Origin: an uncultured Candidatus Saccharibacteria bacterium
GTDB lineage: Bacteria; Patescibacteriota; Minisyncoccia; Phycocordibacterales; PALSA-1337
Length of the DNA: 64,000 nt
Assembly: GCA_964600255.1 (NCBI GenBank)
Contig: CAZRIX010000001.1
Location: forward strand, 43,948-107,947
Direction: 5' to 3'
In this document: positions 2,358 through 61,098 of the stretch, piece by piece
Layout: every line of letters begins with the position of its first letter
Numbering within the stretch: position 1 is the first letter of the stretch
Translations under genes and position numbers: made by a program
The notes under the pieces: generated by a model
The model's database searches: none
The model's input: the letters and a program-made list of their open reading frames with translations, nothing else
What the model was told of the DNA's origin: nothing

Positions 2358-3884
2358 ATGACTGCCAATATTCAACTGATGCGTTTTATTAAAAGACAGA
2401 AAGGATTAAAAATCCTCTTTGTGGCAACAGAAGCAGCTCCTTTTGTAAAAGTTGGAGGTCTAGGTGAAGTATTATTTGCTTTACCAAAAGCTCTAAGAGA
2501 ACTTGGTCATGATGCCCGCGTACTCATACCCAAATATTCTAGTATCCCAGCAGACAAATTCTCATTCAAACCACTCATTGATGGGATCAACATTGAAGGC
2601 AATGTAACAGGTAGACCTATCGTATGCAACGTAAGAGTGCTGGATCAAAAACAAGATGAGCCTATACATAACTATTTCCTAGAAAATCAAGAGTATTTTG
2701 AACAGAGAGGAAGTGTATACGGATACGATGATGATGCTGCTAGATGGGCTGTTATGTGCCGCGGGGCTTTAGAATTCGTCCGCACAGAACAAAATGACTG
2801 GAAGCCAGACTTGATAGTAGCTTCAGATTGGCAAGGTGGACTTATACCCAACTTGATGAAAACTGAGTACAGAGATGATCCTGTAATTTCCAAAATCGCA
2901 GTAGTATTTTCAATACACAATTTACACTACCAGGGAATGTTCGATCATCACCACATTAACGAACTAGACTATGATGATGGTCAGTCTCCTGTTCCTCATG
3001 TCGGTGACCCTAGACTCTTCAAAGCTAACTTTATGCGAAGAGGTATACGTTATGCTGATATAGTAAATACAGTTTCTCCAAACTATGCTCGCGAGATAAC
3101 TACACCGGAGTACGGCGAACTGCTCAACAATATTCTACAGGAACGTCGAGCGAGAGTATTTGGTATTCTAAATGGTATCGATTATACAACCAACGATCCT
3201 ATGTCGAATCCACACGTAGAGTTCAAGTATGATTCAAAATCATTGAAAGAAAGAGAGAAAAATAAACTTTTCCTACAGAGAAAATTCAATCTTGAAGAGA
3301 ATGTAGATATACCAATTTTCGCTATTGTTTCAAGACTTAGTGGACAAAAGGGTCTAGATTTATTGGCCGACACAATAGAACCACTACTGAATAACTACAA
3401 GATGCAACTTATAGTTCTTGGAACTGGAGAATCTAGATACCTTTCATTGTTTGACGATTTGGACAAGAGATATCCGCAGGTTGGAACACATCTTTCATTC
3501 GACCGAGCACTTCCCCACACTATTTATGCAGGCGCAGATGTGATAATGGTACCATCAAAGTTTGAGCCGTCAGGACTAACACAAATGGAAGCTATGAGAT
3601 ACGGTGCATTACCACTCGTTCGCAAAACTGGTGGACTAGCAGACAGTGTTGAAGCGTATTGCCCTATCAACAAAACAGGAACAGGATTCGTATTTGATAA
3701 CTATGACAAGTTTGCATTCTTTGGTGCCGTCGTTCAGGCAATAGAGACTTTCAAACATAAGGACGATTGGTTGGCTATCCAGAAACGCGCTATGGCATCC
3801 AATTTCTCATGGGAGAAGTCAGCAAAGGAATATGTGAATCTATTTAAAAAAGCAATTAATTTTAATAACGAGTATAAAGAATAA
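2358..3884 (+). CDS. glgA: Glycogen/starch synthase (GT5)
   Basis: N-terminal KVGGLGEV motif (KTGGL family). 508 aa. GT-B C-terminal half. Confidence 0.8.
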   Translation: MTANIQLMRFIKRQKGLKILFVATEAAPFVKVGGLGEVLFALPKALRELGHDARVLIPKYSSIPADKFSFKPLIDGINIEGNVTGRPIVCNVRVLDQKQDEPIHNYFLENQEYFEQRGSVYGYDDDAARWAVMCRGALEFVRTEQNDWKPDLIVASDWQGGLIPNLMKTEYRDDPVISKIAVVFSIHNLHYQGMFDHHHINELDYDDGQSPVPHVGDPRLFKANFMRRGIRYADIVNTVSPNYAREITTPEYGELLNNILQERRARVFGILNGIDYTTNDPMSNPHVEFKYDSKSLKEREKNKLFLQRKFNLEENVDIPIFAIVSRLSGQKGLDLLADTIEPLLNNYKMQLIVLGTGESRYLSLFDDLDKRYPQVGTHLSFDRALPHTIYAGADVIMVPSKFEPSGLTQMEAMRYGALPLVRKTGGLADSVEAYCPINKTGTGFVFDNYDKFAFFGAVVQAIETFKHKDDWLAIQKRAMASNFSWEKSAKEYVNLFKKAINFNNEYKE

Positions 3885-3888
3885 ATAA

Positions 3889-5382
3889 ATGTACTGGGCA
3901 AACTTTCTTCACATATATCAGCCAGCAAACCAGAGGAAGGATGTAATAGAAGCTGTTATTGCACAGTGTTACCGTCCACTACTTAAACATATACAAAAAT
4001 CCAAGCATGTAAGACTGACTTTGAATATAAATGCATCACTAGTTGAGCAATTCTACGAACATGGTCATCATGATCTCATCGAAATTCTAAAGGAAGTTGG
4101 ACTCGAAGGTAGAGTCGAGTTTACAAGTTCTGCAAAGTACCACGCATTTCTACCCCTGCTATCTGAAGATGAGATAGTACGTCAGATAAGGATGAATGAT
4201 GAGACAAACAAAAAGTATCTAGGTGACGCCTACAAGCCTGTAGGTTTCTTTTCACCTGAAATGGGATACTCTGAGAAACTACCGGCAATAATAGAAGCCT
4301 TGGGATACAAATGGATGATACTGGATGAAATCTCTGCATTCGGAGAGACTGAAAAGGTTGATCATGCAAAGATCTATAAAATAAAGAATACAAATGTTAA
4401 TGCTTTTTTCAGAGAAAGAAGAATAAGTAACTTAATAATGAGTGCCGTAGTTCGTTCTAGAGAGACACTTATAGAGGCAATGAAAGATGATTTGAAAACA
4501 AATAGGTACTTGATAACAGCGATGGATGGAGAGACATTCGGTCATCACAGGCCTGGCTTGGAGAAAATGCTATTTAAAGTATTTGATACACCAGAGTTCA
4601 ACTTGGTTACAATTTCAGATCTACAAAAACACTATCACGATATTGTAGAAATAGTTCCTGTAAAATCAACATGGGCAAGCAGTAAGCAAGATATTGATAG
4701 AGGTGTTCAGTTTCTATCATGGCATGACCCCTCAAACATCATCCATAGCTGGCAGTGGCAACTTATAAATCTAGTGGGGGCTCAGGTTAAAAAAGTTGAT
4801 ACGAAGGACCCAAAATACGAAGAAATCAGAAAGAAAATGGATCGTGCGCTAGCAAGCGATCATCTATGGTGGGCATCAGCGAAGCCTTGGTGGAGTGTTG
4901 AAATGATAGAGGATGGAGCGTTCAGATTGATAGAGACAATACGACTCATTCCAGGAGTAAGCGATACCGACCTAAGTGCTGCAAGTAAGCTATATGAGAA
5001 TATAGTATCGACCGCTTTTGATTGGCAGCGTTCAGGAAAAATATACCAGATGATGCAAGAACAGAATTCAATACTCAGAATTCCCTTCTTAGAAAGGACA
5101 GTTGGTAAAGGTGGTGCTGAGGTTGGTGTATATCATGCAATTATAAGTCTTATGAAAGGTCTCGAGGAGAAAGCAATAGAAAAGCGTGAATACGAGCAAG
5201 CAATACTTTGGAGAGATGCGATGTACAAACTAGAAAACAAGCTCGATATATACGATACAGTAAACGCAATTGACCTAATGAGAACCCATATTCCGAATGA
5301 TGAAGTTGAGAAGGTTATCGAAATGTACAAGGAAAAGTATAGAGAAATACGAGGTGGTCAAGTTGAACAAAGGGGATCATAA
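3889..5382 (+). CDS. GH57-family glycoside hydrolase (alpha-glucan branching enzyme or amylase type)
   Basis: N-terminal HIYQP motif. Downstream DGETFGHH catalytic region is typical of GH57. Confidence 0.7.
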   Translation: MYWANFLHIYQPANQRKDVIEAVIAQCYRPLLKHIQKSKHVRLTLNINASLVEQFYEHGHHDLIEILKEVGLEGRVEFTSSAKYHAFLPLLSEDEIVRQIRMNDETNKKYLGDAYKPVGFFSPEMGYSEKLPAIIEALGYKWMILDEISAFGETEKVDHAKIYKIKNTNVNAFFRERRISNLIMSAVVRSRETLIEAMKDDLKTNRYLITAMDGETFGHHRPGLEKMLFKVFDTPEFNLVTISDLQKHYHDIVEIVPVKSTWASSKQDIDRGVQFLSWHDPSNIIHSWQWQLINLVGAQVKKVDTKDPKYEEIRKKMDRALASDHLWWASAKPWWSVEMIEDGAFRLIETIRLIPGVSDTDLSAASKLYENIVSTAFDWQRSGKIYQMMQEQNSILRIPFLERTVGKGGAEVGVYHAIISLMKGLEEKAIEKREYEQAILWRDAMYKLENKLDIYDTVNAIDLMRTHIPNDEVEKVIEMYKEKYREIRGGQVEQRGS

Positions 5383-21298: not shown

Positions 21299-22587
21299 TT
21301 GTTTTGTAGTGATAGGTTAAGTTCATCACTTGCATTCTTGATCGCAGTATATGTATCCAAACGACCACTTGTGACAGATTGGACCATATTTGTAAATATT
21401 TGGTTTGATCTTACAGGGTCAGCGTCCAGCCAACCTCGTGAAATAAGCGCTGCATCCAAGAAGCTTGCCATATATGGATTGGTAGATCCTTGAGCTATTA
21501 CATCACGCCTAACTGATGGTAAAAATGTTATCTTGCTCAAGATAGACATAGCGTCGCCTGCTGTAAGTATTCGCATAACATTATATGTATTTGCTTGATT
21601 TTGTGAACTTTTTACCAATGACAATCCATACATATTTCCGTATGTAGTTCGTATTGTACCAGTTCTAGCTTGAGGTATCGGAGCAACATCGTAGTCTATG
21701 TTTGGATTCTTTTGCCTTAATTCATTTACCTCTGAAGCAAAACCAAAATATGTAGCCAGGGTTCCAGCTAGGAAACTTGCTTTTGATGATGGTAATGACC
21801 TATTCCAAGAATAGTGTGAATCTCTAGGATCTGAAAACTGAGTAAAGAAAGTCAGTGCAGGTGTAGAAGTTCTAGAACCTGAATATGAACTGTCACTTAG
21901 CCCACTCTGTATACCAGCTGAACCATATAGTGTTACAGGATTACCAGCCTGAAGGAATAGAGTGCTTAGGATTTCTCTAGCATGATCAATATTTGCGAAC
22001 TCTCCCATAGCTATAGAACTTCTTCTAATATTTGAATTGATATCCTTGATGTCTATTTTCTTTCCTATATTTGCAAACTCATCCCAATACACTGGGTACT
22101 TTGCTATACCTGCATTTGTAAACATTGTTCTATTCCAATACATGACCATAGGATCCACTAGGAAAGGAATAGCTGTGAAGCCTGTTTGTGTAATATACAA
22201 ATCTGATTGGCCAATAAATGTATCTTGATATGCACGCTGTGACAGTGCAGTGTTTGGAATCTCGATAATCTTATCTACTAGACCCAATATGTACTGCTGC
22301 GGTACTAGTATTGCGTCGGGGCCTCTACCATTTGCTAGCTCCTCTATGAACTGTCTTCTAAAGTCTGCTGCGGGTATTTGGACATAGTTGATACTCAATG
22401 CTGATGCACGTGTCTGGTTCAACTGATTGACCATCTCGGTAATAGTAGAAGATGGTAGAGTTCCCCATATCGTTACTGTTGGTAACTGAGTTGATGTATT
22501 ACTACTTTTGAATGTGGCGAAAGCAATAACTCCGATCACGATACAAAAAACAAAAACTCCAGTTAAAATTATTTGAAATTTACTCAT
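21295..22587 (-). CDS. Membrane-anchored protein with periplasmic solute-binding-protein-like fold
   Basis: N-terminal TM anchor, then a ~400-aa alpha/beta domain of SBP-like composition. No ABC permease nearby. Start and stop overlap the flanking genes. Confidence 0.35.
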   Translation of the reverse strand: MSKFQIILTGVFVFCIVIGVIAFATFKSSNTSTQLPTVTIWGTLPSSTITEMVNQLNQTRASALSINYVQIPAADFRRQFIEELANGRGPDAILVPQQYILGLVDKIIEIPNTALSQRAYQDTFIGQSDLYITQTGFTAIPFLVDPMVMYWNRTMFTNAGIAKYPVYWDEFANIGKKIDIKDINSNIRRSSIAMGEFANIDHAREILSTLFLQAGNPVTLYGSAGIQSGLSDSSYSGSRTSTPALTFFTQFSDPRDSHYSWNRSLPSSKASFLAGTLATYFGFASEVNELRQKNPNIDYDVAPIPQARTGTIRTTYGNMYGLSLVKSSQNQANTYNVMRILTAGDAMSILSKITFLPSVRRDVIAQGSTNPYMASFLDAALISRGWLDADPVRSNQIFTNMVQSVTSGRLDTYTAIKNASDELNLSLQNK

Positions 22588-23108
22588 TGTTTTTTAAATA
22601 TAATACCATAATGATGATCTCCGGCATCAAAAGTCTTCTCTATTGTAAGACCTACCTTTTGGAAAATACCTTCAGCAAGCATCTGTGGAACTAGTGTCTT
22701 TGGACTCAATGGACTTCCAGATGACCAATCGATAACTAGAAGCTTACCTCCGGACTTCAGAAGTCTCTTTACCTCAAGTGCTAGGTTGTCTCTATCTGCA
22801 ACTTCTATTTGGAAGAGTGTATTTGAAAGAATTACACGATCAGCGATCGCTTCACGAAGTTTTGTTCCACCTAGTTTTTCTATATTACCCCAAACAACCT
22901 CGATATTGCGTAGACCGGCAAGTGCCCCACTGTTTTTAATCTTGTTCAAAAGATCTTGTTGAACATCTACTGCATATACTCGTCCAGAAGCACCGGCTTT
23001 CTTGGCTGCTTCTATTGTATAGAAACCTGATCCAGCACCTAGGTCGACAACTTTCATACCATGGTCGATACCTAACATTGCTATATTTTTTTGAGGGTCA
23101 GAAAACAT
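22584..23108 (-). CDS. Class I SAM-dependent methyltransferase
   Basis: VVDLGAGSGFYT glycine-rich SAM motif. Acidic residue after strand 2 (AVDVQ). Confidence 0.65.
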   Translation of the reverse strand: MFSDPQKNIAMLGIDHGMKVVDLGAGSGFYTIEAAKKAGASGRVYAVDVQQDLLNKIKNSGALAGLRNIEVVWGNIEKLGGTKLREAIADRVILSNTLFQIEVADRDNLALEVKRLLKSGGKLLVIDWSSGSPLSPKTLVPQMLAEGIFQKVGLTIEKTFDAGDHHYGIIFKKQ

Positions 23109-29306: not shown

Positions 29307-29768
29307 CTATTTTCGCAATGTCGCGATAAGTGCAGATCGATCAATGAGCAAATCGAGCGCGTCTAAGATTGAAGTTGTAACGATGTCCGAATTTAAAAGC
29401 ACCTGTACATGTACACCCTCAGACTGAATCGTAACTATTCTGAGCTTGACCACCTTCATGAGCTCTAGATCTATCAAACCGTTGCCAATAGACACGCAAG
29501 TATCGGGATTGAGCTTTAACGCTTCATACCTTTTTGCGTCTCCATTTTCAGCCAAAATCCAATCAATACCCAATTCAGCAGCGATTTGATCTGCATTGTT
29601 GCGTGTATTGCCAGTAAAGAACAGGATATGATATCCAAGGTCCTTTAATCGTGTAAGGCGTTCCTTTACTCCTTCGGGGATTACTCCCATGACGGTTAAA
29701 GTGCCGTTAAGATCGAGAATGAGAGTTTTAAGCTCCAACTGACCGACACCGGGAATTTGGTATACCAT
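29307..29768 (-). CDS. Small HAD-superfamily hydrolase
   Basis: LILDLNGTL (DxD motif I). FFTGN motif II. GNGLID motif IV-like. ~153 aa. Confidence 0.5.
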   Translation of the reverse strand: MVYQIPGVGQLELKTLILDLNGTLTVMGVIPEGVKERLTRLKDLGYHILFFTGNTRNNADQIAAELGIDWILAENGDAKRYEALKLNPDTCVSIGNGLIDLELMKVVKLRIVTIQSEGVHVQVLLNSDIVTTSILDALDLLIDRSALIATLRK

Positions 29769-40556: not shown

Positions 40557-40907
40557 ATGGCAAAAAATGCTACAATTTTGACGTTAAAAATAACACATAA
40601 AAATATGAAAGGATTTATTGATTTTATACGTACACAAGGGGTGGTTGGGCTGGCTGTAGGATTCATTTTGGGTAAGGCTGTATCAGACGTAGTGGCATCT
40701 ATAGTAAATGACCTTATAAACCCTATTATAGGCATAGTTTTGGGCCGTTTTGGGGACCTTTCTGCCCTATCTTTGCATGTATTATCAGCCAATATTACCT
40801 ACGGTAAATTCATAAGTATACTAATAAACTTCGCCATAATTGCCGGGGTGGTATATTTTGGAGTAAAGAAGTTGGGATTGGACAAGCTTGATAAGCCGAA
40901 GGTTTAG
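40557..40907 (+). CDS. mscL: Large-conductance mechanosensitive channel
   Basis: GFIDFIRTQGVVGLAVGFILGKA N-terminal signature. Two TM helices. 116 aa. Confidence 0.85.
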   Translation: MAKNATILTLKITHKNMKGFIDFIRTQGVVGLAVGFILGKAVSDVVASIVNDLINPIIGIVLGRFGDLSALSLHVLSANITYGKFISILINFAIIAGVVYFGVKKLGLDKLDKPKV

Positions 40908-40956
40908 AGTTAGTATAAAAAGCAAATCTTCTCGATTCTAACGGATCGAGAATCAT

Positions 40957-41032
40957 GCGCGGTTAGCTCAGTTGGTAGAGCATCCCCTTGACGTGGGGAG
41001 GGTCACAGGTTCGAGTCCTGTATCGCGCACCA
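40957..41032 (+). tRNA. tRNA-Val (GAC), CCA encoded
   Basis: 76-nt cloverleaf GCGCGGTTAGCTCAGTTGGTAGAGC...ACAGGTTCGAGTCCTGT...CCA. Anticodon loop UUGACGU. Confidence 0.85.
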
Positions 41033-42085
41033 ATGATTACATTAGGAATCGAAACAAGCTGTGATGAAACAGCACTATGTTTACTTGAATCAAGCGATAG
41101 TGACCGTGATGTTAAATACCGTGTACTTGGCAACATCGTTCACTCTCAAATAGATTTACATCGTGAATTCGGTGGTGTCTTCCCTATGCTTGCCAAAAGA
41201 GAACACATTAAGAACCTTCCAATTTTATATAAAAAAATAATCGAAGATAGCGGTGTCGATGAAGGCAATATAAACAGAATCGCTGTCACAAAGGGCCCTG
41301 GTCTTGAACCTGCTTTGTGGACTGGAATTCTTTTTGCAAATGATTTGGGTAAAAGACTGAACATACCGGTAATCCCTATAAATCATATGGAGGGTCACAT
41401 CATGGCTTCTTTGATATCAGATTCAAAAGCTAGTAGTGAATTTCAAATGTTAAAAGAAATCCAGTACCCAGCTCTGGCCCTACTTATAAGTGGTGGTCAT
41501 ACAGAAATTGTAAAAATTCACGAACATCAAAAATTCGAAATACTTGGTAGTACGGTAGACGATGCAGTTGGTGAGGCGTTCGATAAAGTAGCCAGAATGA
41601 TGAATCTCCCATATCCAGGTGGGCCAGAGATTTCAAGGCTTGCGGAACAGGCTCGTAAAGAGAATATACCGAATCTAGTCACTCTTCCCCGCCCAATGAT
41701 TCATTCCAAAGATCTTAGATTCTCTTTTTCTGGACTCAAAACTGCGGTTCTTTATGCACTAAAAAAGATTGAGAATCTAGATGAAAATCAAAAGAAAGAT
41801 ATAGCTCGAGAATTTGAAAATTCTGTTACCGAAGTTCTAATATCAAAGGTTAAGTTGGCTATAGAGGATAATGAAGTAAGAACGCTAATAATAGGTGGTG
41901 GTGTGATCGCCAATAAATACATTAGAGAAAATTTTGAGAAGTTGGCAAATGAGAGTAGTTTACCTCTATACCTACCTGGCGCTGGATTGACTGGAGATAA
42001 TGCACTAATGATAGCACTCGTTGGAGCAATAAAACCCTCTGATAGTCATGAGGGCTTTAGAGCTGAAGGAAATTTGTCTTTTTAG
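41033..42085 (+). CDS. tsaD: tRNA N6-adenosine threonylcarbamoyltransferase TsaD (Kae1/YgjD family)
   Basis: MITLGIETSCDETA N-terminus (GIETSCDxT). HMEGH metal motif. The ORF-track start at 40988 overlaps the tRNA, so the ATG at 41033 is preferred. Confidence 0.8.
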   Translation: MITLGIETSCDETALCLLESSDSDRDVKYRVLGNIVHSQIDLHREFGGVFPMLAKREHIKNLPILYKKIIEDSGVDEGNINRIAVTKGPGLEPALWTGILFANDLGKRLNIPVIPINHMEGHIMASLISDSKASSEFQMLKEIQYPALALLISGGHTEIVKIHEHQKFEILGSTVDDAVGEAFDKVARMMNLPYPGGPEISRLAEQARKENIPNLVTLPRPMIHSKDLRFSFSGLKTAVLYALKKIENLDENQKKDIAREFENSVTEVLISKVKLAIEDNEVRTLIIGGGVIANKYIRENFEKLANESSLPLYLPGAGLTGDNALMIALVGAIKPSDSHEGFRAEGNLSF

Positions 42086-42102: not shown

Positions 42103-45100
42103 CTATTTTCCAAATAGTAATTTCAATATCTTAAGGAAATATGTCTTTGTACCTACAACAATAGCTGATGTCACCTTTGAGATCGTGCCTTTATTACCTT
42201 TTACTGCAGTTTTGTTAGCACCAGCATCATTCTTTGTACTTGAGACAACCCCTATTAATCCTGTAGCCTTCTTAGATACTACACTCGTCCCTGACTCACT
42301 AGCTTTTACTTCCTTAGAATTTTTTGAACTTTCTAGTGGCTTTAATGTTGGCGCCTTTGTGACTGGGTCCGGCACAAGACTTGCAAATGGTGAGGTTAAC
42401 TGCCTTACAAAATTAATTGCTTTATGTGGATTTACAGCGGTCACAATAGCAGCTACTGGAGTTACAATCTCAGGTTCTGGATTGTATATAGTTATAACTA
42501 CACTTGTTGTTGCGAAGTTATTTGATGAATCGCGTGCTACAGCATATACAGTATAGCTACCATCAGCATAACTAGTACTATTGAGAGAAGTAAAATATGG
42601 ACTAGCCACATCCTCCACTCCCAAATATACTCCATCAATCATAAATCGAACTCCAGCTAGCGATACATTATCTACTGCAGATGCAACTATACTTACCGCA
42701 TTTCCAGATACCACTTCAGCGTTAGCTGGAGATACGATGGAAATAACAGGGGCAGTTATGTCTGGCACAATATTTGAAACCGTAATACTTACCGATGTTG
42801 TCGCATAGTTATTTGATGAATCCCGGGCAACCGCAGTGACAACATAATTACCATTTGCAACTGAAGTACTGTCAAAAGATATTGTGTATGGACTACTTGT
42901 ATCTTCTGATCCAAGATTTACATTATCGAGTTTAAACTGTACCCCTGCGACAGCTATGTTATCTGTTGCTGTAGCGGCAATGCTGTAAGAGCTTCCTGAG
43001 ACCGTAGCGAGGTCTGTAGGTGATGTAATAGATACAACTGGATCTGTAGTATCGGGTATTACAACTGCCAAAGCAGAAGCCATATTAGAATTACTTGTTC
43101 CACTAGCATCAACTAGTCTTATTCTGTAATAATAATCAATTCCATCGGAAATATATGGATCAGTAAATGTTGTTGTACCCTCTGGCACCAAATCTGAAAC
43201 TATGTTTTGAGTAAATAGGAAATTCGTAGCTCTATCTACATACAACATATGTGATGTTGTAGCATTGTTTGTCCAAGTCAGATCAACTTGATTTGCTCCT
43301 CTAGTAGCATCCAAACTTGTTGCAGCTGGAGTCAAACTTACTGATGGGAATACATCATCTAGATTCCAACTACTGTTCCATGAAATAGACATCGTATTGT
43401 TTGTTGGGAATGTCAAAGGTAACCAAACATGTCTACTGTTATACAATGATCCAGCGAGATTATTACTATAATCAAATCTATCTCCGATATAAATATATGC
43501 ATCACCACGTCCAGGTATATGCTCTATATCCGTTGTCTGGGAACGGTAAGCAATCATTCTATCTTCCTCAACACTAACCTGGAATGGATTTACAAGTGGT
43601 GACCAATTGCCCATAACACTCGTTGAGGTTGAATATTTATTCTCGTTTGGAGCCCATCCTGTTAGTCCAGATGTAAGTAGGAAGTACACACCATTTCGAA
43701 GTATCATCTGAGGACCCTCACGACCAATCAATACATTTGGTCTAACATATGTTCCAGAAGTGGTTAGATAATCATCTGATAGTTTTGAAATAACGAAATG
43801 CGTATTCGGACCGTCTGAGTATAGTAGATATCCTGATCCATCAGTATCCTTAAATAGGTTCATGTCGTTTAGATAGAATCCATCTGGGTTGTAAGATGAT
43901 GAAGCAATAGTGAATGCCCCGTATGGTGTGTCGTTGTAAGCAACCACTGCTGTAGATTTTCCGGATGCGATAACTCGGTGACCCCATAGTACGTATTTTC
44001 CAGTCGTGGCGTTATATAGCACGTGTGGTCTTTCTATCATATAACTTCTACCGAGATAAATAACAGGACCTTCATCTTTCCAATTTATCAAATCACTTGA
44101 TGAGTAACATGATATACCTACTGCTTCGATTTCTGGATCGTTTGCATTAAAAATCTGTCCGTACCAATAGTACTTACCGTTAAAGAATTGTATTTCTCCA
44201 TCATGTGACTCAATCAAATGGTTATCAGTATCTAACCAATCCTGTCCTGGCTTAAAATCGATATCGAACCAATATCTAGATTGAGGCGAGACTTCAGAGA
44301 CGAACATGCCATCACTTATAGCTATAGATTGAACTGTGGATGATGCACTCAGTACAAACGGTGCAGTGTATAGTACCGTTGTACCTTGTGGGACTCCGTC
44401 TACTACACTAGGAATACTACCGTCAGTTGTATAGTAAATAGATGCGTTGGTTGTGATACTAGAAAGTCTTACTCTAATTGGTTGTGCATACTTTCCTCCA
44501 TTTGGCGAAGCTGTAGGGTGAACAGGGGTATATGGAGTGGTTGTGCCAGGATTTCCAATCAATCTAAATTCGGCTAGGTTACCGTAGTTTCCATCTGGCA
44601 TAACTAGTCTGTAAAATCTGTATGCACTACCGCCGGCGTCGATAGCAATCTCACTCATCTGTCGCTGAGCATAATACGGAGGATATGGTTGTATTGTGTG
44701 TATAGTTGTCCAAGGTCCAGTACTAGAACTGACATTTGCTCCTTGCAGATATGCACCGTAAACTTGAACTGTGTATCCTGGTCTTGGTGCAATCTTCATT
44801 CGCGTTACAACAGCTGGTGCCTTTAGATCAAGGCCAACTAGAGAACCGTTTGCACTTTGAGAATCCCACCATGTAGAAGTATTGCCGTCATATACCTTTG
44901 AGTAAACATTTCCACTGTTATTGTAACTTCCTGGAGTTCCAAACTGGTATGCAGGTGAGATACTAAACTGTATTTCTCCAGTTGAAGTCGCTACCGGACA
45001 TGTTGCGGTGGTCAATGTCCTGTTTGGTCCATATGAAGTACCAGATAGGTTTATTGTATATGCTCTGAAGTTATAGACGGTAGCACATGATAGACCACTT

Positions 45101-48100
45101 ACTGTTAATGAGTATGGACCTACTGGATACAATCCAGTTTCAGTAGTTGTAGCTCCATAAGCGGAGTTTAGACCATACTGAAAACCTCTGGCTGTAGAAC
45201 TTGCTGCTCCGTCGTTTGTAATATTACCATTTAGTATTGCAGTGAAGCTTGTCGTTGAACTAGCTGCGGATGTAGTGATTGTTGCAGGCATAGAGTTATT
45301 CACGATCACTCCAATTGATGTAGACGTACTTACATTCCCTGTTGCATCCGCAGCAACAACTGAAATTGTATGATATCCATCTGCTACTGAAGTTGAATTC
45401 CAACTGATTGAATATGGTGATGTAGTTCCAGACGCACCTATACTAGTATTGGTATCAATTTTAAACTGTACACTTCCTATTCTCACGTTATCAGAAGTTG
45501 ATGCTGTAAGAGTTACGCTCGATCCTGTTAATGTTGAGCTGGCTGTTGGGACTACAATTGCTGTAGTCGGAGGAATTGTGTCAGCCAAAACTGTTATGGT
45601 TGTAGATGCGCCAGAATCTGGAGCCGTGATCCTCAATGTACCAGTACTACTACCAGCGGATACGGTGATGTTGGCACTGGTAGAGCTTGATACTACTTGT
45701 GACGTTATTGCTGCACCTGTACCACCACTTATTCCAAATGTAGGCGAACCGGGCGTACCAGAAGTCCAGCTGGTTGCATTTCCAGTCAGTGTTATCACAT
45801 TATTTATTGAGTTCTGATATATAGTCGGAGTATTGGCAGAAACAGTAATCTGGGTGTTTATTAGATTGACCAGAACGTCAGTTGATGTACCTACGTTGCC
45901 TGAAGAGTCGGTAACAATTACTCGTATATTATGAGGACCATCAGCAATACTTGCTGAATTCCATACTATTGAATACGGCGATGTTGTTCCAACCGCGCCG
46001 ATGTTTGTATTATCTACCTGAAACTGGACTGAACTTACACTAGTATCATCACTTGAAGTTGCCGTTAGAGTAACATTACCCAAAAGGTCTGCACCGTTTA
46101 CTGGAGACGTAACTGTTCCGGTTGGTGGAGTAACATCGGCTGATAGCAGGAAATTCGCGATAGCTGTTGTAGAGTTTGAAGTACCTGCAGCAGTCACAGT
46201 TCTGATTCTGTAGTAATATCTAGTATCGTTCACAATGTCAGTATCTACAAAATTTGAAATGGTAGTTGTTGCTCGTATTGAAATAAAGTTTTCAGTAAAA
46301 ATATTGTCAGTTGCCCTATCGATGTACAACTCATAGGAGTTCGTCTCATTATTAGTCCAAGACAGATTCACAGTCAGAGCATTCTTGGTTGCTGTGAGAC
46401 CGGTTGCGGCTTGTGTTGGTATAGAGGTTGTAAAAGCCTCGTCCAAAGTCCAGCCTGGATTCCAAGAGATCGACATGGTGTTGTCGGTTGGAAATGTAAT
46501 AGGTAAAAATAAATATGTACTATTGTATAGCGAGCCACTAGCCGTTGCTGAATTATCAAACCTATCTCCCAAATACATATACCCTTCGGTCCTGCCTTGG
46601 ATGGTTAATATGCCAGATGTATGAGATCTGTAAGCGATCGTATTATCTTCAGTTGCACTTGATTGAAAAGGATTAACTAGTGCAGAAAATGTACCCAGAG
46701 GACTGGTTGATGTTGAATATTTATTTGTTGTAGCAGTCCAACTATTTTGTCCACTATTTAACAAAAAGTAAACTCCATTTCTCTTTACCATTGCTGGCGC
46801 ACTTCTATTTGCATTCGCAGCTGAAATATTGGAAACACCAGACATACCTTCGTATGTACTATCTAGCTTGGAAATAATCATTTTAGAATTATCACTAGAT
46901 GTGTAAATTATGTATGCCGTACCATCTGTATCTTTAAATAGGTTGAGATCGTTCAATCCTAGGGCATCAGGATTAAGAGATGTGGTAACAACCCTAAACG
47001 GCCCGTATGGCGTACTTGATGTTGCGACTATTGCTCTAGAGTTTGTTACGTTTCTTGCCCACATAACATACCTACTTGTAGTAGCGTTATATATAACGTG
47101 TGGTCTTTCTAGTATATATGATGTATTTACATTAAAAACCAACCCCTGACTAGTCCAATTTACTAGGTCGGATGATGTATATAAGTTAACACCAAGTTTT
47201 TCCAACTCAGGTGAAATATTGTTCATTGACTCACCGTACCAGTAATATTTTCCATTGAAATAACTTATACCACCAGTATGTGCGTCTATGATATTGCCGT
47301 TATTGTCATGCCACGTGATTCCAGATCGGATTGCGGGATTGATGAAAAAATACGCTGGATTTGAAACCTCTGAGACATATGTATTTGCACTTACAGCAAT
47401 ACTTTTGATAGTCGTTGTTGCTGTTGTAGTTGCCATGAATGGACCTGTGTACAGACGAGTAGTACCTTGTGGTGAACCTCCACTAAAAGTTGGTGTCGTA
47501 CCATCGTTTGTATAATAAATAACTGCGTCCGTGGTTGAACTAGTAATAGTTACTTGAACTGGTTGTGCAAACTTTCCACCCATAGGACTAATCTTTGGGA
47601 CAACTGGTACGTATGGAGTCGTACTTGAAGCAATACCAATTAGTCTCATTTCTCCTAGAGATCCGTAGGCACCGTTTGGCATGACTAGGCGGTAATATCT
47701 GTAGAACAATCCACCAGTATTTATTGGTATTTCAGAAAATTGTTTCTGAGGATAGAACGGAGGATAACTAGGTATTGTATAAATCGTTGTCCAAGGTCCT
47801 GTAGAAGAACTCACGGTTGCACCTTGGAAAACAGCGCCATGTAGTCTAACCGTGTATCCTGTGCGTGGTGCTACCCACAGTTTTGTAACTTGCGCATTTA
47901 CAGTTAGATCCAATCCTACGTTTGAACCATTGGCAAAAGACTGATTGGCATCCCACCAACTAGTCAAATCTCCATCGAATACTTTGGCAATCGTGTTTCC
48001 GTTATTGAAATAACTTCCAGCTGTTCCTATTTGATATTGTGGAGCAATACTAAACTGAACTTCTCCTGTTGCTGCATATATGATTATAGGGTAAACAAAG

Positions 48101-48183
48101 GCGGAGATGAGCAAAAAGATTACTATGAAAAAGTGATCTTTAATCAACTTTTTTACTGCATAGTAAAATGTGCTCTTTTCCAT
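42103..48183 (-). CDS. Giant (2026 aa) secreted or surface protein with two tandem discoidin-like plus GH43-like beta-propeller modules, then FN3/Ig-like repeats
   Basis: N-terminal signal anchor. Two copies of an F5/8-type-C-like domain (DGDLTSWWDA / DGNTSTWWDS). Two clan GH-F propeller units (NGKYYWYG, SSDL.NW, ERPHV.YNATT..YV.W). Lys-rich C-terminal tail. Confidence 0.6.
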   Translation of the reverse strand: MEKSTFYYAVKKLIKDHFFIVIFLLISAFVYPIIIYAATGEVQFSIAPQYQIGTAGSYFNNGNTIAKVFDGDLTSWWDANQSFANGSNVGLDLTVNAQVTKLWVAPRTGYTVRLHGAVFQGATVSSSTGPWTTIYTIPSYPPFYPQKQFSEIPINTGGLFYRYYRLVMPNGAYGSLGEMRLIGIASSTTPYVPVVPKISPMGGKFAQPVQVTITSSTTDAVIYYTNDGTTPTFSGGSPQGTTRLYTGPFMATTTATTTIKSIAVSANTYVSEVSNPAYFFINPAIRSGITWHDNNGNIIDAHTGGISYFNGKYYWYGESMNNISPELEKLGVNLYTSSDLVNWTSQGLVFNVNTSYILERPHVIYNATTSRYVMWARNVTNSRAIVATSSTPYGPFRVVTTSLNPDALGLNDLNLFKDTDGTAYIIYTSSDNSKMIISKLDSTYEGMSGVSNISAANANRSAPAMVKRNGVYFLLNSGQNSWTATTNKYSTSTSPLGTFSALVNPFQSSATEDNTIAYRSHTSGILTIQGRTEGYMYLGDRFDNSATASGSLYNSTYLFLPITFPTDNTMSISWNPGWTLDEAFTTSIPTQAATGLTATKNALTVNLSWTNNETNSYELYIDRATDNIFTENFISIRATTTISNFVDTDIVNDTRYYYRIRTVTAAGTSNSTTAIANFLLSADVTPPTGTVTSPVNGADLLGNVTLTATSSDDTSVSSVQFQVDNTNIGAVGTTSPYSIVWNSASIADGPHNIRVIVTDSSGNVGTSTDVLVNLINTQITVSANTPTIYQNSINNVITLTGNATSWTSGTPGSPTFGISGGTGAAITSQVVSSSTSANITVSAGSSTGTLRITAPDSGASTTITVLADTIPPTTAIVVPTASSTLTGSSVTLTASTSDNVRIGSVQFKIDTNTSIGASGTTSPYSISWNSTSVADGYHTISVVAADATGNVSTSTSIGVIVNNSMPATITTSAASSTTSFTAILNGNITNDGAASSTARGFQYGLNSAYGATTTETGLYPVGPYSLTVSGLSCATVYNFRAYTINLSGTSYGPNRTLTTATCPVATSTGEIQFSISPAYQFGTPGSYNNSGNVYSKVYDGNTSTWWDSQSANGSLVGLDLKAPAVVTRMKIAPRPGYTVQVYGAYLQGANVSSSTGPWTTIHTIQPYPPYYAQRQMSEIAIDAGGSAYRFYRLVMPDGNYGNLAEFRLIGNPGTTTPYTPVHPTASPNGGKYAQPIRVRLSSITTNASIYYTTDGSIPSVVDGVPQGTTVLYTAPFVLSASSTVQSIAISDGMFVSEVSPQSRYWFDIDFKPGQDWLDTDNHLIESHDGEIQFFNGKYYWYGQIFNANDPEIEAVGISCYSSSDLINWKDEGPVIYLGRSYMIERPHVLYNATTGKYVLWGHRVIASGKSTAVVAYNDTPYGAFTIASSSYNPDGFYLNDMNLFKDTDGSGYLLYSDGPNTHFVISKLSDDYLTTSGTYVRPNVLIGREGPQMILRNGVYFLLTSGLTGWAPNENKYSTSTSVMGNWSPLVNPFQVSVEEDRMIAYRSQTTDIEHIPGRGDAYIYIGDRFDYSNNLAGSLYNSRHVWLPLTFPTNNTMSISWNSSWNLDDVFPSVSLTPAATSLDATRGANQVDLTWTNNATTSHMLYVDRATNFLFTQNIVSDLVPEGTTTFTDPYISDGIDYYYRIRLVDASGTSNSNMASALAVVIPDTTDPVVSITSPTDLATVSGSSYSIAATATDNIAVAGVQFKLDNVNLGSEDTSSPYTISFDSTSVANGNYVVTAVARDSSNNYATTSVSITVSNIVPDITAPVISIVSPANAEVVSGNAVSIVASAVDNVSLAGVRFMIDGVYLGVEDVASPYFTSLNSTSYADGSYTVYAVARDSSNNFATTSVVITIYNPEPEIVTPVAAIVTAVNPHKAINFVRQLTSPFASLVPDPVTKAPTLKPLESSKNSKEVKASESGTSVVSKKATGLIGVVSSTKNDAGANKTAVKGNKGTISKVTSAIVVGTKTYFLKILKLLFGK

Positions 48184-53096: not shown

Positions 53097-53765
53097 CTAT
53101 TTTACCTTAATTCCTAATAATTGAACTATCTGGGCTGTCTGTGAAAAATCAATTGTAATATTTCTCATCTGTTCTGCCCCCATTTTAATACCATCAATCT
53201 GAGAACTGCTTAGATCAACACCCTTAATATTCGAGTTAGAAAAATCAACGTTACTCATCTTACAATTTATAAAATAAACATTATTTAACTCTGCACCTTG
53301 AAAATCTGAATCATTAAGACTACATCCATCAAATATCACATCTTCAATTATAGAAAAACGAAAGAGCGCGAGGTCGGCCTTACTATTCGTAAACGTCACA
53401 TATCTAAGTGAGGCACTTACCAGCTTTAAACCAGTAAGGCGGCAACTCTTAAATTCGACCCTACTGAAGCTAGCTTGCTCGAAATAAGTATTTAGCAGAT
53501 TAACTGCGTCAAACTGGACATCGGTTAATTTTATTGATTTCAGTTTTGAGCGACTGATTTCAACGTGATTAATTATTGAGTTCTCTATCGATAGATCAGA
53601 AGCTTCAACTAGACTTAAATCCAAATCAGATAATTTAATCTTTTCAAAATTAAAATCATCTACAAATTGTTCTCTGGACAACACAACCACATCCAAACCT
53701 TTAGGTATAATTGGTTTTAATATTGAACGGACTTTTTCAGGTTTTTGTTTTAAGGCTTGAATCAT
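53097..53765 (-). CDS. Pentapeptide-repeat protein
   Basis: Tandem A(D/N)LxF-type pentapeptides through the C-terminal half (FQGAELNNVYFINCKMSNVDFSNSNIKGVDLS). Confidence 0.7.
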   Translation of the reverse strand: MIQALKQKPEKVRSILKPIIPKGLDVVVLSREQFVDDFNFEKIKLSDLDLSLVEASDLSIENSIINHVEISRSKLKSIKLTDVQFDAVNLLNTYFEQASFSRVEFKSCRLTGLKLVSASLRYVTFTNSKADLALFRFSIIEDVIFDGCSLNDSDFQGAELNNVYFINCKMSNVDFSNSNIKGVDLSSSQIDGIKMGAEQMRNITIDFSQTAQIVQLLGIKVK

Positions 53766-53767
53766 TG

Positions 53768-53839
53768 TGCCCTCGGCAGGAATCGAACCTACATCTACTC
53801 CTTAGGACGGAACTGTTCTATCCATTGAACTACGAGGGC
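53768..53839 (-). tRNA. tRNA-Arg (CCU)
   Basis: 72-nt cloverleaf. D- and T-arms nearly identical to E. coli tRNA-Arg(CCU). Anticodon loop GUCCUAA. Confidence 0.75.
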
Positions 53840-60657: not shown

Positions 60658-60737
60658 AATAAAATTTCAAGCGAATTATTAATAATCGAATATCACTTAT
60701 TATATCAAACAAAAAACCTCCTGTTAAGGAAGTTTTT

Positions 60738-61098
60738 TGATGTAACATATCGATAAGCCGAGTTCTGTACTTGGAAGTTTACACGACCAAGCGACAATCA
60801 TTTATCTGGGATTTACTTTACAGTAAACCTCAAGCGGCACTCTCAGTAGGTATTACTACCTACCAAGCACGGCCTTGCACTCAGGTAAGGATTTTGCCGT
60901 TGCACCTTGTATGTTGCCATACAAACTAATCCTAACGGATCCACTAGTCGTTTCCAACCAGTGCGTCTCTGTTCGCACCTCGCACCTCACGGCGGACGGG
61001 CGTTACCCGCTACCCTTTTAGAAGATTGCTCCTCCAAAGTGCTCGGACTTTCCTCTATTTATGCTTACGCATATACAGCGATTGTCTGATATGTACAA
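60738..61098 (-). ncRNA. rnpB: RNase P RNA (bacterial type)
   Basis: Minus strand carries the P4 halves GAGGAAAGUCCGAGC and ACAGAACUCGGCUUAUCG, plus GGGUAACGCC. P1 pairing UGUACAUAUCAGA with UCGAUAUGUUACA sets the ends. Confidence 0.8.

Follow-up and report, generated by a model that had tools for sequence, protein, structure and literature searches.

How is a gene translated when its start codon follows the discriminator base of a transfer RNA by only three nucleotides (nt)? The question is raised by tsaD, which encodes the t6A37 threonylcarbamoyltransferase subunit, in an uncultured Candidatus Saccharibacteria bacterium (GenBank assembly GCA_964600255.1, contig CAZRIX010000001.1, positions 43,948 to 107,947 of the forward strand; this whole stretch of 64,000 nt is referred to as the window). 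The gene follows a tRNA-Val gene so closely that a promoter has no space between the tRNA and the ATG. From the comparison of this junction with related genomes and metagenomes, tRNA-Val and tsaD probably form one transcription unit, in which the cut at the 3' end of the tRNA would produce a leaderless tsaD messenger RNA (mRNA), the tRNA replacing a promoter in defining its 5' end.

The tRNA-Val gene (anticodon GAC) extends on the forward strand from G1 to the discriminator A73 at 40957-41029. It was identified by ARAGORN, whose call covers 40957-41032, and by the Rfam tRNA family RF00005 (67.0 bits, gathering score 29, E 3.3e-14, 40957-41029, model positions 1-71 of 71). A 3-nt spacer read from the sequence, CCA (41030-41032), separates it from tsaD (41033-42085, forward strand, 350 amino acids (aa)). 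The junction is ...ATCGCGC A CCA ATG ATT ACA TTA GGA ATC GAA ACA AGC TGT GAT or, in blocks, GTATCGCGC-A-CCA-ATGATTACATTAGGAATCGAAACAAGCTGTGAT, with the discriminator at A41029, the CCA at 41030-41032 and the start codon at 41033-41035. An earlier interpretation of the letters alone (the sequence-only reading) had placed the ATG at these positions behind tRNA-Val, and its coordinates are borne out by ARAGORN, Rfam and the sequence. It had also held that a conserved N-terminus fixes the start of tsaD, which agrees with the profile TIGR03723: the open reading frame (ORF) at 41033-42085 scores 358.4 bits (curated equivalog cutoff 296.1), residues 4-333 corresponding to profile positions 2-311, and the start is set within about two residues by the alignment of profile position 2 with residue 4. 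The N-terminus, MITLGIETSCDET, carries the motif IETSCDET, and the pattern M-x-x-L-x-IETSCDET is conserved in the 80 relatives described below; the next in-frame methionine, at about residue 52, lies past this motif. An exact-sequence look-up returned no record matching the 350-aa protein or a 365-aa form extended to an upstream TTG. The 25 nt upstream of the ATG are occupied by the T arm and acceptor stem of the tRNA and contain no GGAG-like motif, in line with the earlier statement that the junction has no room for a Shine-Dalgarno (SD) sequence.

The relatives were the 80 best loci (L001-L080) from species-representative genomes, all of them Patescibacteria of the candidate phyla radiation (CPR) in the Parcubacteria-Paceibacterota branch (Taylorbacteria, Nomurabacteria, Kaiserbacteria, Zambryskibacteria and others), the best TsaD matches having 71-76% identity, which places the host in the Paceibacterota (Parcubacteria). 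The outcome that the sequence-only reading had named as speaking against it, a downstream methionine preceded by an SD, was looked for in these loci: tsaD starts at the homologous methionine or a few codons upstream of it in 80/80 relatives and downstream in none, and an SD-like motif precedes it in only 2/80. A same-strand tRNA ends within 30 nt upstream of tsaD in 19/80 relatives, and the arrangement of the window, with 1-3 nt between discriminator and start codon, is conserved in 12/80, mostly with tRNA-Val and also with tRNA-Pro and tRNA-Glu. The junction is ...GC(G/C)CA-C-ATG in L003, L009, L013, L036, L062 and L067, A-CA-GTG in L014 and L026, A-CAG-ATG in L057, and A-CCA-ATG, the same as in the window, in L043; in L007 a tRNA-Pro abuts tsaD, and in L080 a tRNA-Glu does so with A-CCA-ATG.

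Relatives without an adjacent tRNA show what may take its place. Among these 61 loci, 31 carry a TAnnnT hexamer 5-8 nt before the tsaD ATG, mostly as TGnTAnnnT at exactly 6 nt, compared with 7 at 25-28 nt, the distance taken as a control. In several of the other 28 relatives a -10 box lies 9-12 nt upstream of tsaD. Because a -10 box at 5-8 nt replaces the tRNA end in 31 relatives, the comparison strongly suggests that the whole clade has a leaderless tsaD, whose 5' end is set either by the tRNA end or by a -10 box. In a neighbour-joining tree of TsaD the abutting state is scattered over about eight clades and interleaved with promoter-type starts. Most non-abutting loci have a tRNA-Val farther upstream on the same strand, and a tRNA-Val lies within 4 kb of tsaD in most of the 80 relatives, which points to an old tRNA-Val-tsaD linkage that was repeatedly interrupted by gene insertions.

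The same junction was searched for in metagenomes with a pattern that joins the 3' half of a tRNA (T arm and acceptor) to the tsaD N-terminus and leaves a free gap of 0-30 nt. At least 119 contigs matched (L081-L199), and tRNA-Val(GAC) was confirmed for 114 among the 119 matches listed; several of them, for example L082 and L094, stem from assemblies of the Hainich aquifer. The distribution of spacer lengths among these listed matches is far from even: no junction has 0 nt, 33 have 1 nt, 9 have 2 nt, 18 have 3 nt, 10 have 4 nt, 3 have 5 nt, 9 have 6 nt, 4 have 7 nt, 6 have 8 nt, 2 have 9 nt, 7 have 10 nt and 7 have 11 nt, and a long thin tail of 11 junctions reaches from 12 to 28 nt. Spacers of 1-3 nt thus make up 60/119 of the matches listed and those of up to 4 nt 59% (57/95 after crude dereplication). 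The first spacer base is C in all 119, and the commonest spacers among them are C (33), CCG (8), CC (6) and CCA (6). The spacer lengths peak sharply at the shortest one allowed, which speaks for selection that keeps the AUG near the tRNA end. Leaderless translation in Escherichia coli depends on a 5' phosphate and on an AUG near the 5' terminus, according to Giliberti 2012 and Krishnan 2010 (both cited in PMC9031893), and the preference for minimal spacing is consistent with this requirement.

Translation starts elsewhere in the window have similar features. An SD-like motif precedes 4/59 mechanically predicted starts, one of the four lying inside a tRNA-Arg, and a TAnnnT hexamer ends 4-9 nt before 23/59; the distance is exactly 6 nt in 13 of these, and the hexamer is often TATAAT. 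TATAAT-like boxes 6-7 nt before the ATG were seen at many window genes, for example at the starts 1049, 22584-23108 (reverse strand), 29307-29768 (reverse strand) and 50618. A distance of 6 nt between the -10 hexamer and the ATG implies that transcription would begin at the A of the ATG. In one survey, a -10 box close to the start without an SD is the signature of 'group C' of GeneMarkS-2, bacteria with frequent leaderless transcripts (PMC6028130). These patterns suggest that the lineage depends on initiation that is leaderless and needs no SD, and the genome sampled by the window looks like a group C genome; no documentation of such a trait for CPR/Patescibacteria was found in the literature searched, and the terms looked for in the survey gave no mention of Patescibacteria (PMC6028130).

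The stop codons of tsaD and of a convergent gene for a 2026-aa protein are only 17 nt apart, so that the transcription unit would comprise tRNA-Val and tsaD only. Its candidate sole promoter is a promoter-like TTGATA-17 nt-TAGTAT at 40888-40916 on the forward strand, found by a consensus scan with 9/12 matches. In relatives, TGnTAnnnT boxes precede the abutting tRNA, or a tRNA-Glu/tRNA-Val tandem, by 8-35 nt. Between the candidate promoter and the tRNA there is a hairpin of 8-10 bp, TTCTCGAT-tctaacgg-ATCGAGAA (40929-40952), which is predicted to belong to the 5' leader of the precursor tRNA and was also recorded as a terminator-like hit on the reverse strand; in the minimum free energy fold of 40921-41090 it coexists with the cloverleaf.

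The following sequence of events is proposed. Transcription would start at a promoter upstream of the tRNA and yield a joint precursor of tRNA-Val and tsaD. RNase P would cut at G40957 and remove the 5' leader together with the hairpin; a full-length bacterial class A RNase P RNA is predicted in the window itself, at 60737-61097 on the reverse strand (Rfam RF00010, 135.6 bits, gathering score 100, E 2e-41). An endonuclease would then cut at the 3' end of the tRNA, after A73/C74 or after the CCA, and this cut would create the 5' end of the tsaD mRNA, the nuclease and the exact site being inferred. The product would be an mRNA with a 5' monophosphate followed by 0-3 nt and the AUG, which may be translated by the leaderless route (5'-terminal AUG, SD-independent) that the lineage would use for most first genes of operons. 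Speculatively, an mRNA with a 5' monophosphate would be short-lived, which would reconcile the strong transcription of a tRNA with a modest need for TsaD.

Where the 3' cut would fall depends on how the CCA of the window is understood. The sequence-only reading had called it the encoded CCA of the tRNA; the letters CCA do stand at 41030-41032, but the other three window tRNAs end in A-CAA and lack CCA, so that one of the four window tRNAs has it, and with the relatives included 115/140 tRNA genes are without it. A conserved genomic 3' CCA was not found in this set (25/140 tRNA genes), in which C74 is encoded in 137/140 and position 75 is usually A. As the 3-nt spacers of the metagenome matches listed include no fewer CCG than CCA (8 and 6, respectively), the CCA of the window is best taken as a spacer variant and is probably one form of a C-initial spacer. 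When tRNA genes lack CCA, the precursor is cut at the discriminator and CCA is added enzymatically. Since most tRNA genes here are without it, the precursors of this lineage would be cut at the discriminator or beside it, with CCA then added or completed. In the junctions A-C-ATG and A-CC-ATG a CCA encoded in DNA is impossible without consuming the start codon, which implies a cut within A73-C75, 0-2 nt before the AUG. A cut at A73/C74 is more likely than one after A76, judging from these junctions; in the window a cut after A73 would leave a leader of 3 nt, one after C74 a leader of 2 nt, and one after A76 none, with an exact 5'-terminal AUG. The near-universal C74, and the C-initial spacers of all 119 tsaD junctions listed, none of them of length 0, suggest that the nuclease processing tRNA 3' ends in this lineage uses this base as a determinant or cuts right there. 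In Bacillus subtilis C74 inhibits RNase Z, and a C74 serving as a cut determinant would be unusual.

The use of a tRNA end in front of an ORF is not confined to tsaD. In the window and the 80 loci, an ORF of at least 100 aa starts 0-4 nt after the discriminator at 21/132 tRNAs, with about 4.0 expected at random positions and 0/123 in a divergent-direction control. These 21 abutments comprise 13 cases of tsaD, one that is spurious (a tRNA-Glu in L026) and seven others: a SpoU-family RNA methylase behind tRNA-Val in L079, DHH/DHHA1 phosphoesterases behind a tRNA in L052 and L065, an HD-domain protein gene behind tRNA-Val in L047, a methyltransferase gene in L033, an ORF behind tRNA-Phe in L040, and a pentapeptide-repeat ORF behind a tRNA-Arg in the window. 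The ATG of the SpoU gene lies 1 nt after the discriminator of tRNA-Val in L079, and in L071 the homologous ATG stands 6 nt behind TGGTATAAT, both proteins beginning with MRP...; on this comparison, a tRNA end and a predicted leaderless promoter are interchangeable for the SpoU gene as for tsaD. Judged by these counts the tRNA-end device is a recurrent, minority feature, with tRNA-Val-tsaD as its main instance.

Genome-wide tRNA punctuation was also considered and rejected: only about 5% of tRNAs not linked to tsaD abut an ORF, upstream genes do not abut the 5' ends of tRNAs (in the window the gaps are 49 and 21 nt), and promoters are abundant.

These abutting genes bear on the explanation that survives best beside the one preferred here, namely the same processing with an adaptive purpose: TsaD would be kept in step with tRNA synthesis through the shared tRNA promoter. 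Its appeal lies in the persistence of a same-strand tRNA-Val within 4 kb upstream of tsaD in most of the 80 relatives, in the fact that tsaD is by far the commonest tRNA-abutting gene (13/21), and in the action of several other abutting genes (SpoU methylase, DHH phosphoesterase, HD domain) on RNA or nucleotides. However, t6A37 is found on tRNAs decoding ANN codons, and tRNA-Val(GAC), which reads GUY codons, is not a substrate of this modification. Unrelated genes use tRNA ends too, and many lineages, the closest relatives included, gave tsaD a promoter of its own or inserted genes between the two. Deep synteny together with genome compaction in a lineage that translates leaderless mRNAs would suffice without selection for coupling, and an adaptive link is considered unlikely. 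The interpretation put forward by the sequence-only reading is thereby divided. Its proposal that a cotranscript is cut at the tRNA 3' end to give a leaderless, or nearly leaderless, tsaD mRNA best fits the sequence comparison; of the RNase Z/P-type processing that it named, only the RNase P RNA is seen in the window; its further claim, that the arrangement couples the modification enzyme to tRNA transcription, is not upheld, given that tRNA-Val(GAC) is no t6A37 substrate and that tRNA-Val also abuts SpoU methylase, DHH, HD and methyltransferase genes.

Several observations weigh against the proposal that the tRNA end defines a leaderless tsaD mRNA. About a third of the metagenome junctions listed have spacers of 6-28 nt, which are short leaders and not leaderless starts. 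Abutment is dispensable, since four of the closest relatives (L001, L002, L004 and L005, 71-76% identity) are without it; L003, at 72%, has it. The candidate promoter TTGATA-17-TAGTAT is weak when taken alone, the scan not being enriched over shuffled sequences (7 sites against 5.9 expected). Abutments of genes other than tsaD are modest in number, 7/119 in the window and the 80 loci (control 0/123), and in independent metagenome loci they amount to 7/132 against 1/137 controls, with four of the seven belonging to one gene family. A further difficulty concerns the nuclease: should CCA be inhibitory to the 3' endonuclease, as is the case with the RNase Z of B. subtilis, the tRNA-Val of the window might be matured by an exonucleolytic route that would destroy the mRNA. 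No ORF in the window and the 80 loci carries the motifs of RNase Z (HxHxDH) or of the CCA-adding enzyme (GGxVRD), a result that is uninformative for the whole genome.

The longer spacers also lend some weight to a different account of translation, in which no cut is needed: tsaD would be translated from the uncut precursor, or from a chimera matured at the 5' end of the tRNA and uncut at its 3' end, by SD-independent internal initiation, the tRNA acting as a structured 5' cap. Junctions with 6-28 nt indicate that an exact 5'-terminal AUG is not obligatory, and SD-independent internal initiation must exist in this organism, as most internal genes of the window have no SD. Those internal starts, however, lie in A/T-rich unstructured sequence, whereas the 25 nt upstream of tsaD are rich in G+C and folded into the arms of the cloverleaf. 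A functional tRNA-Val needs its 3' cut regardless, and translation of an uncut RNA predicts neither the peak of 1-3 nt spacers nor the -10 boxes at the exact leaderless distance. On these grounds such a route is judged distinctly improbable.

An independent primary transcript of tsaD from a promoter inside the tRNA gene is very unlikely. The sequence TTGACG (40988-40993, anticodon loop), followed after 17 nt by TCGAGT (41011-41016, T loop), does resemble a -35/-10 pair and, as a promoter, would produce a leader some 10 nt long; yet TCGAGT lacks the near-invariant A at position 2 (-11), the site was not reported by the scan, and the motif is an unavoidable by-product of the tRNA-Val(GAC) sequence. 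No TAnnnT hexamer occurs in the last 25 nt of the window tRNA-Val, and among the abutting loci only L080 has one inside the tRNA at 5-8 nt before the ATG. Moreover, tRNA-Pro and tRNA-Glu abut tsaD as well, and the distance between tRNA and ATG varies from 1 to 3 nt while the sequence of the tRNA is fixed. An annotation artefact, with tsaD starting elsewhere or the tRNA being a pseudogene or tRNA-like relic, is scarcely credible: although an in-frame TTG at 40988 would lengthen the ORF by 15 codons that lie in the tRNA, the TsaD profile begins at residue 4, the next methionine lies beyond IETSCDET, the upstream TTG was rejected because the distance from tRNA to start shifts by 1-2 nt between relatives and no upstream frame is conserved, and the tRNA, at 67 bits, is a perfect cloverleaf equal to the tRNA-Val(GAC) conserved in the relatives.

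A candidate second instance of a tRNA end serving as an mRNA start occurs in the window on the reverse strand. The tRNA-Arg(CCT) at 53768-53839 (ARAGORN; Rfam 62 bits) has an extended -10 box, TGgTATATT (53857-53849), 9 nt upstream, and its discriminator is followed by CA and by the ATG (53765) of a 222-aa ORF (53097-53765, reverse strand, from the ORF list; Pfam Pentapeptide_4, 95.2 bits), a 2-nt spacer before a putative start. A uridine-kinase-like gene begins 11 nt after this ORF. The start of the ORF is a candidate one, as no homologues were found in the metagenome locus or protein search and the Pfam repeats begin only at about residue 57.

Three relatives display unusual layouts at tsaD. 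In L007 (3823-3968) ARAGORN reports a tRNA-Val (3823-3897) and a tRNA-Pro (3897-3968) that share one base, and the tRNA-Pro abuts tsaD, a spacer-less tandem of tRNAs and mRNA. In L047 (3397-4004) tRNA-Val abuts the HD-domain gene (C-ATG), whose stop overlaps the tsaD start (ATGA); this may be read as a tRNA-defined leaderless first gene to which tsaD is coupled by the overlapping stop and start. In L066 (2244-2316) a 73-nt insertion separates tRNA-Val from tsaD; its terminal repeats are inverted (CCCGTTAGAAATTT / AAATTTCTAACGGG), and ATGAG is duplicated. This insertion at the tsaD start resembles a miniature mobile element; it leaves a mini-ORF of 23 codons, which remains directly adjacent to the tRNA and ends 4 nt short of the tsaD ATG. 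A 9-mer of the insertion, TTCTAACGG, recurs in the hairpin upstream of the window tRNA-Val (40929-40952).

On either side of the unit in the window are two further genes. Upstream is an MscL-like ORF (40557-40907, forward strand), whose family-typical N-terminus (MKGFIDF...) starts from the second methionine (40605); 28 nt separate this methionine from an upstream extended -10 box, TGcTACAAT (40568-40576), and contain no SD. The convergent 2026-aa protein downstream (42103-48183, reverse strand) contains two GH43 domains, an F5/8 type C domain, a chitobiase C-terminal/Fn3-associated domain and four Big_7 Ig domains, and is internally duplicated.

The tRNA punctuation model was reportedly formulated for animal mitochondria by Ojala, Montoya and Attardi in 1981. 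In mitochondria, RNase P and RNase Z excise the tRNAs that flank genes and thereby define the mRNA ends, and the mRNAs start at or near the AUG and are leaderless (PMC12242768, PMC13041877). The tsaD locus is similar in that a tRNA directly flanks a coding sequence (at 3 nt in the window) and its excision would set the mRNA 5' end. It differs in its bacterial host with many promoters and a bacterial ribosome, in being known from sequence alone, and in that only a minority of tRNAs is involved (21/132, and about 5% without tsaD), upstream genes not abutting the tRNA 5' ends. By its gene layout the tsaD arrangement is not a member of a genome-wide punctuation system; it is a predicted bacterial variant that would work likewise at particular loci. 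Of the known systems, mitochondrial punctuation is the nearest to it in function, and the promoter-made leaderless mRNAs of Actinobacteria and Deinococcus are the nearest in the biology of the host. Plant-mitochondrial t-elements and a tRNA-like element of Haloferax are tRNA-shaped structures that are cut by RNase P or RNase Z and set mRNA ends. These are non-functional mimics of tRNAs, whereas the tRNA at the present locus is canonical and presumably essential. Within bacteria, the thrU-tyrU-glyT-thrT-tufB operon of E. coli has one promoter for its tRNAs and a protein gene, and the tRNAs are excised from the common transcript. The proposed joint transcript of tRNA-Val and tsaD is alike in this respect; unlike tsaD, tufB keeps a normal leader with an SD, and no leaderless 5' end is set there by a tRNA end.

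Leaderless mRNAs made by promoters (in Actinobacteria and Deinococcus, for instance M. tuberculosis and D. deserti) share with the window and its relatives a -10 box 6-8 nt before the start and the lack of an SD (group C, PMC6028130). Their 5' end is made by transcription initiation and bears a triphosphate, whereas the tsaD 5' end would be made by RNA processing and bear a monophosphate. A post-transcriptional origin has reportedly been proposed for E. coli by Vesper et al. in 2011, with MazF making leaderless mRNAs. As in the mechanism considered for tsaD, an endonuclease cuts just upstream of the AUG; MazF, however, is a stress toxin that leaves a 5' hydroxyl, and the cut proposed here would be a constitutive housekeeping step of tRNA maturation. 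The MazF model was not reproduced by other laboratories and is disputed, and it is the sole post-transcriptional source of leaderless mRNAs listed in a 2022 review of leaderless translation in bacteria (PMC9031893). The prevailing view is that bacterial leaderless mRNAs come almost exclusively from transcription that begins at the AUG. No report of leaderless mRNAs derived from tRNA processing in bacteria or CPR was found in the literature searched, which is not proof of absence; papers on P. acnes, S. coelicolor and T. kodakarensis and the review on leaderless mRNAs do not describe the arrangement.

A broader proposal can be made tentatively. It is possible that in the Paceibacterota (CPR) the 3'-maturation cut of tRNAs is a regular and selected route to leaderless mRNAs, which would amount to tRNA punctuation in bacterial form, with C74 marking the cut: cleavage of the dominant junction 'A-C|AUG' would release an mRNA that starts exactly at the AUG and bears a 5' phosphate, and a tRNA that ends in C74 and would be completed to CCA by a nucleotidyltransferase.

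If the proposed processing is true, the obligatory 3' maturation of a tRNA would be a second route to a leaderless mRNA, a constitutive one and for an essential gene, and it would constitute an independent bacterial parallel to mitochondrial tRNA punctuation. The output of TsaD would then be tied to the transcription of tRNA-Val and to the decay of an RNA with a 5' monophosphate. For genome annotation, gene callers that expect a ribosome-binding site, or that forbid contact between tRNA and coding sequence, would assign wrong starts to such CPR genes. Translation initiation in the CPR is largely unstudied, and this junction, with its predicted 5' end, offers a simple entry point to it.

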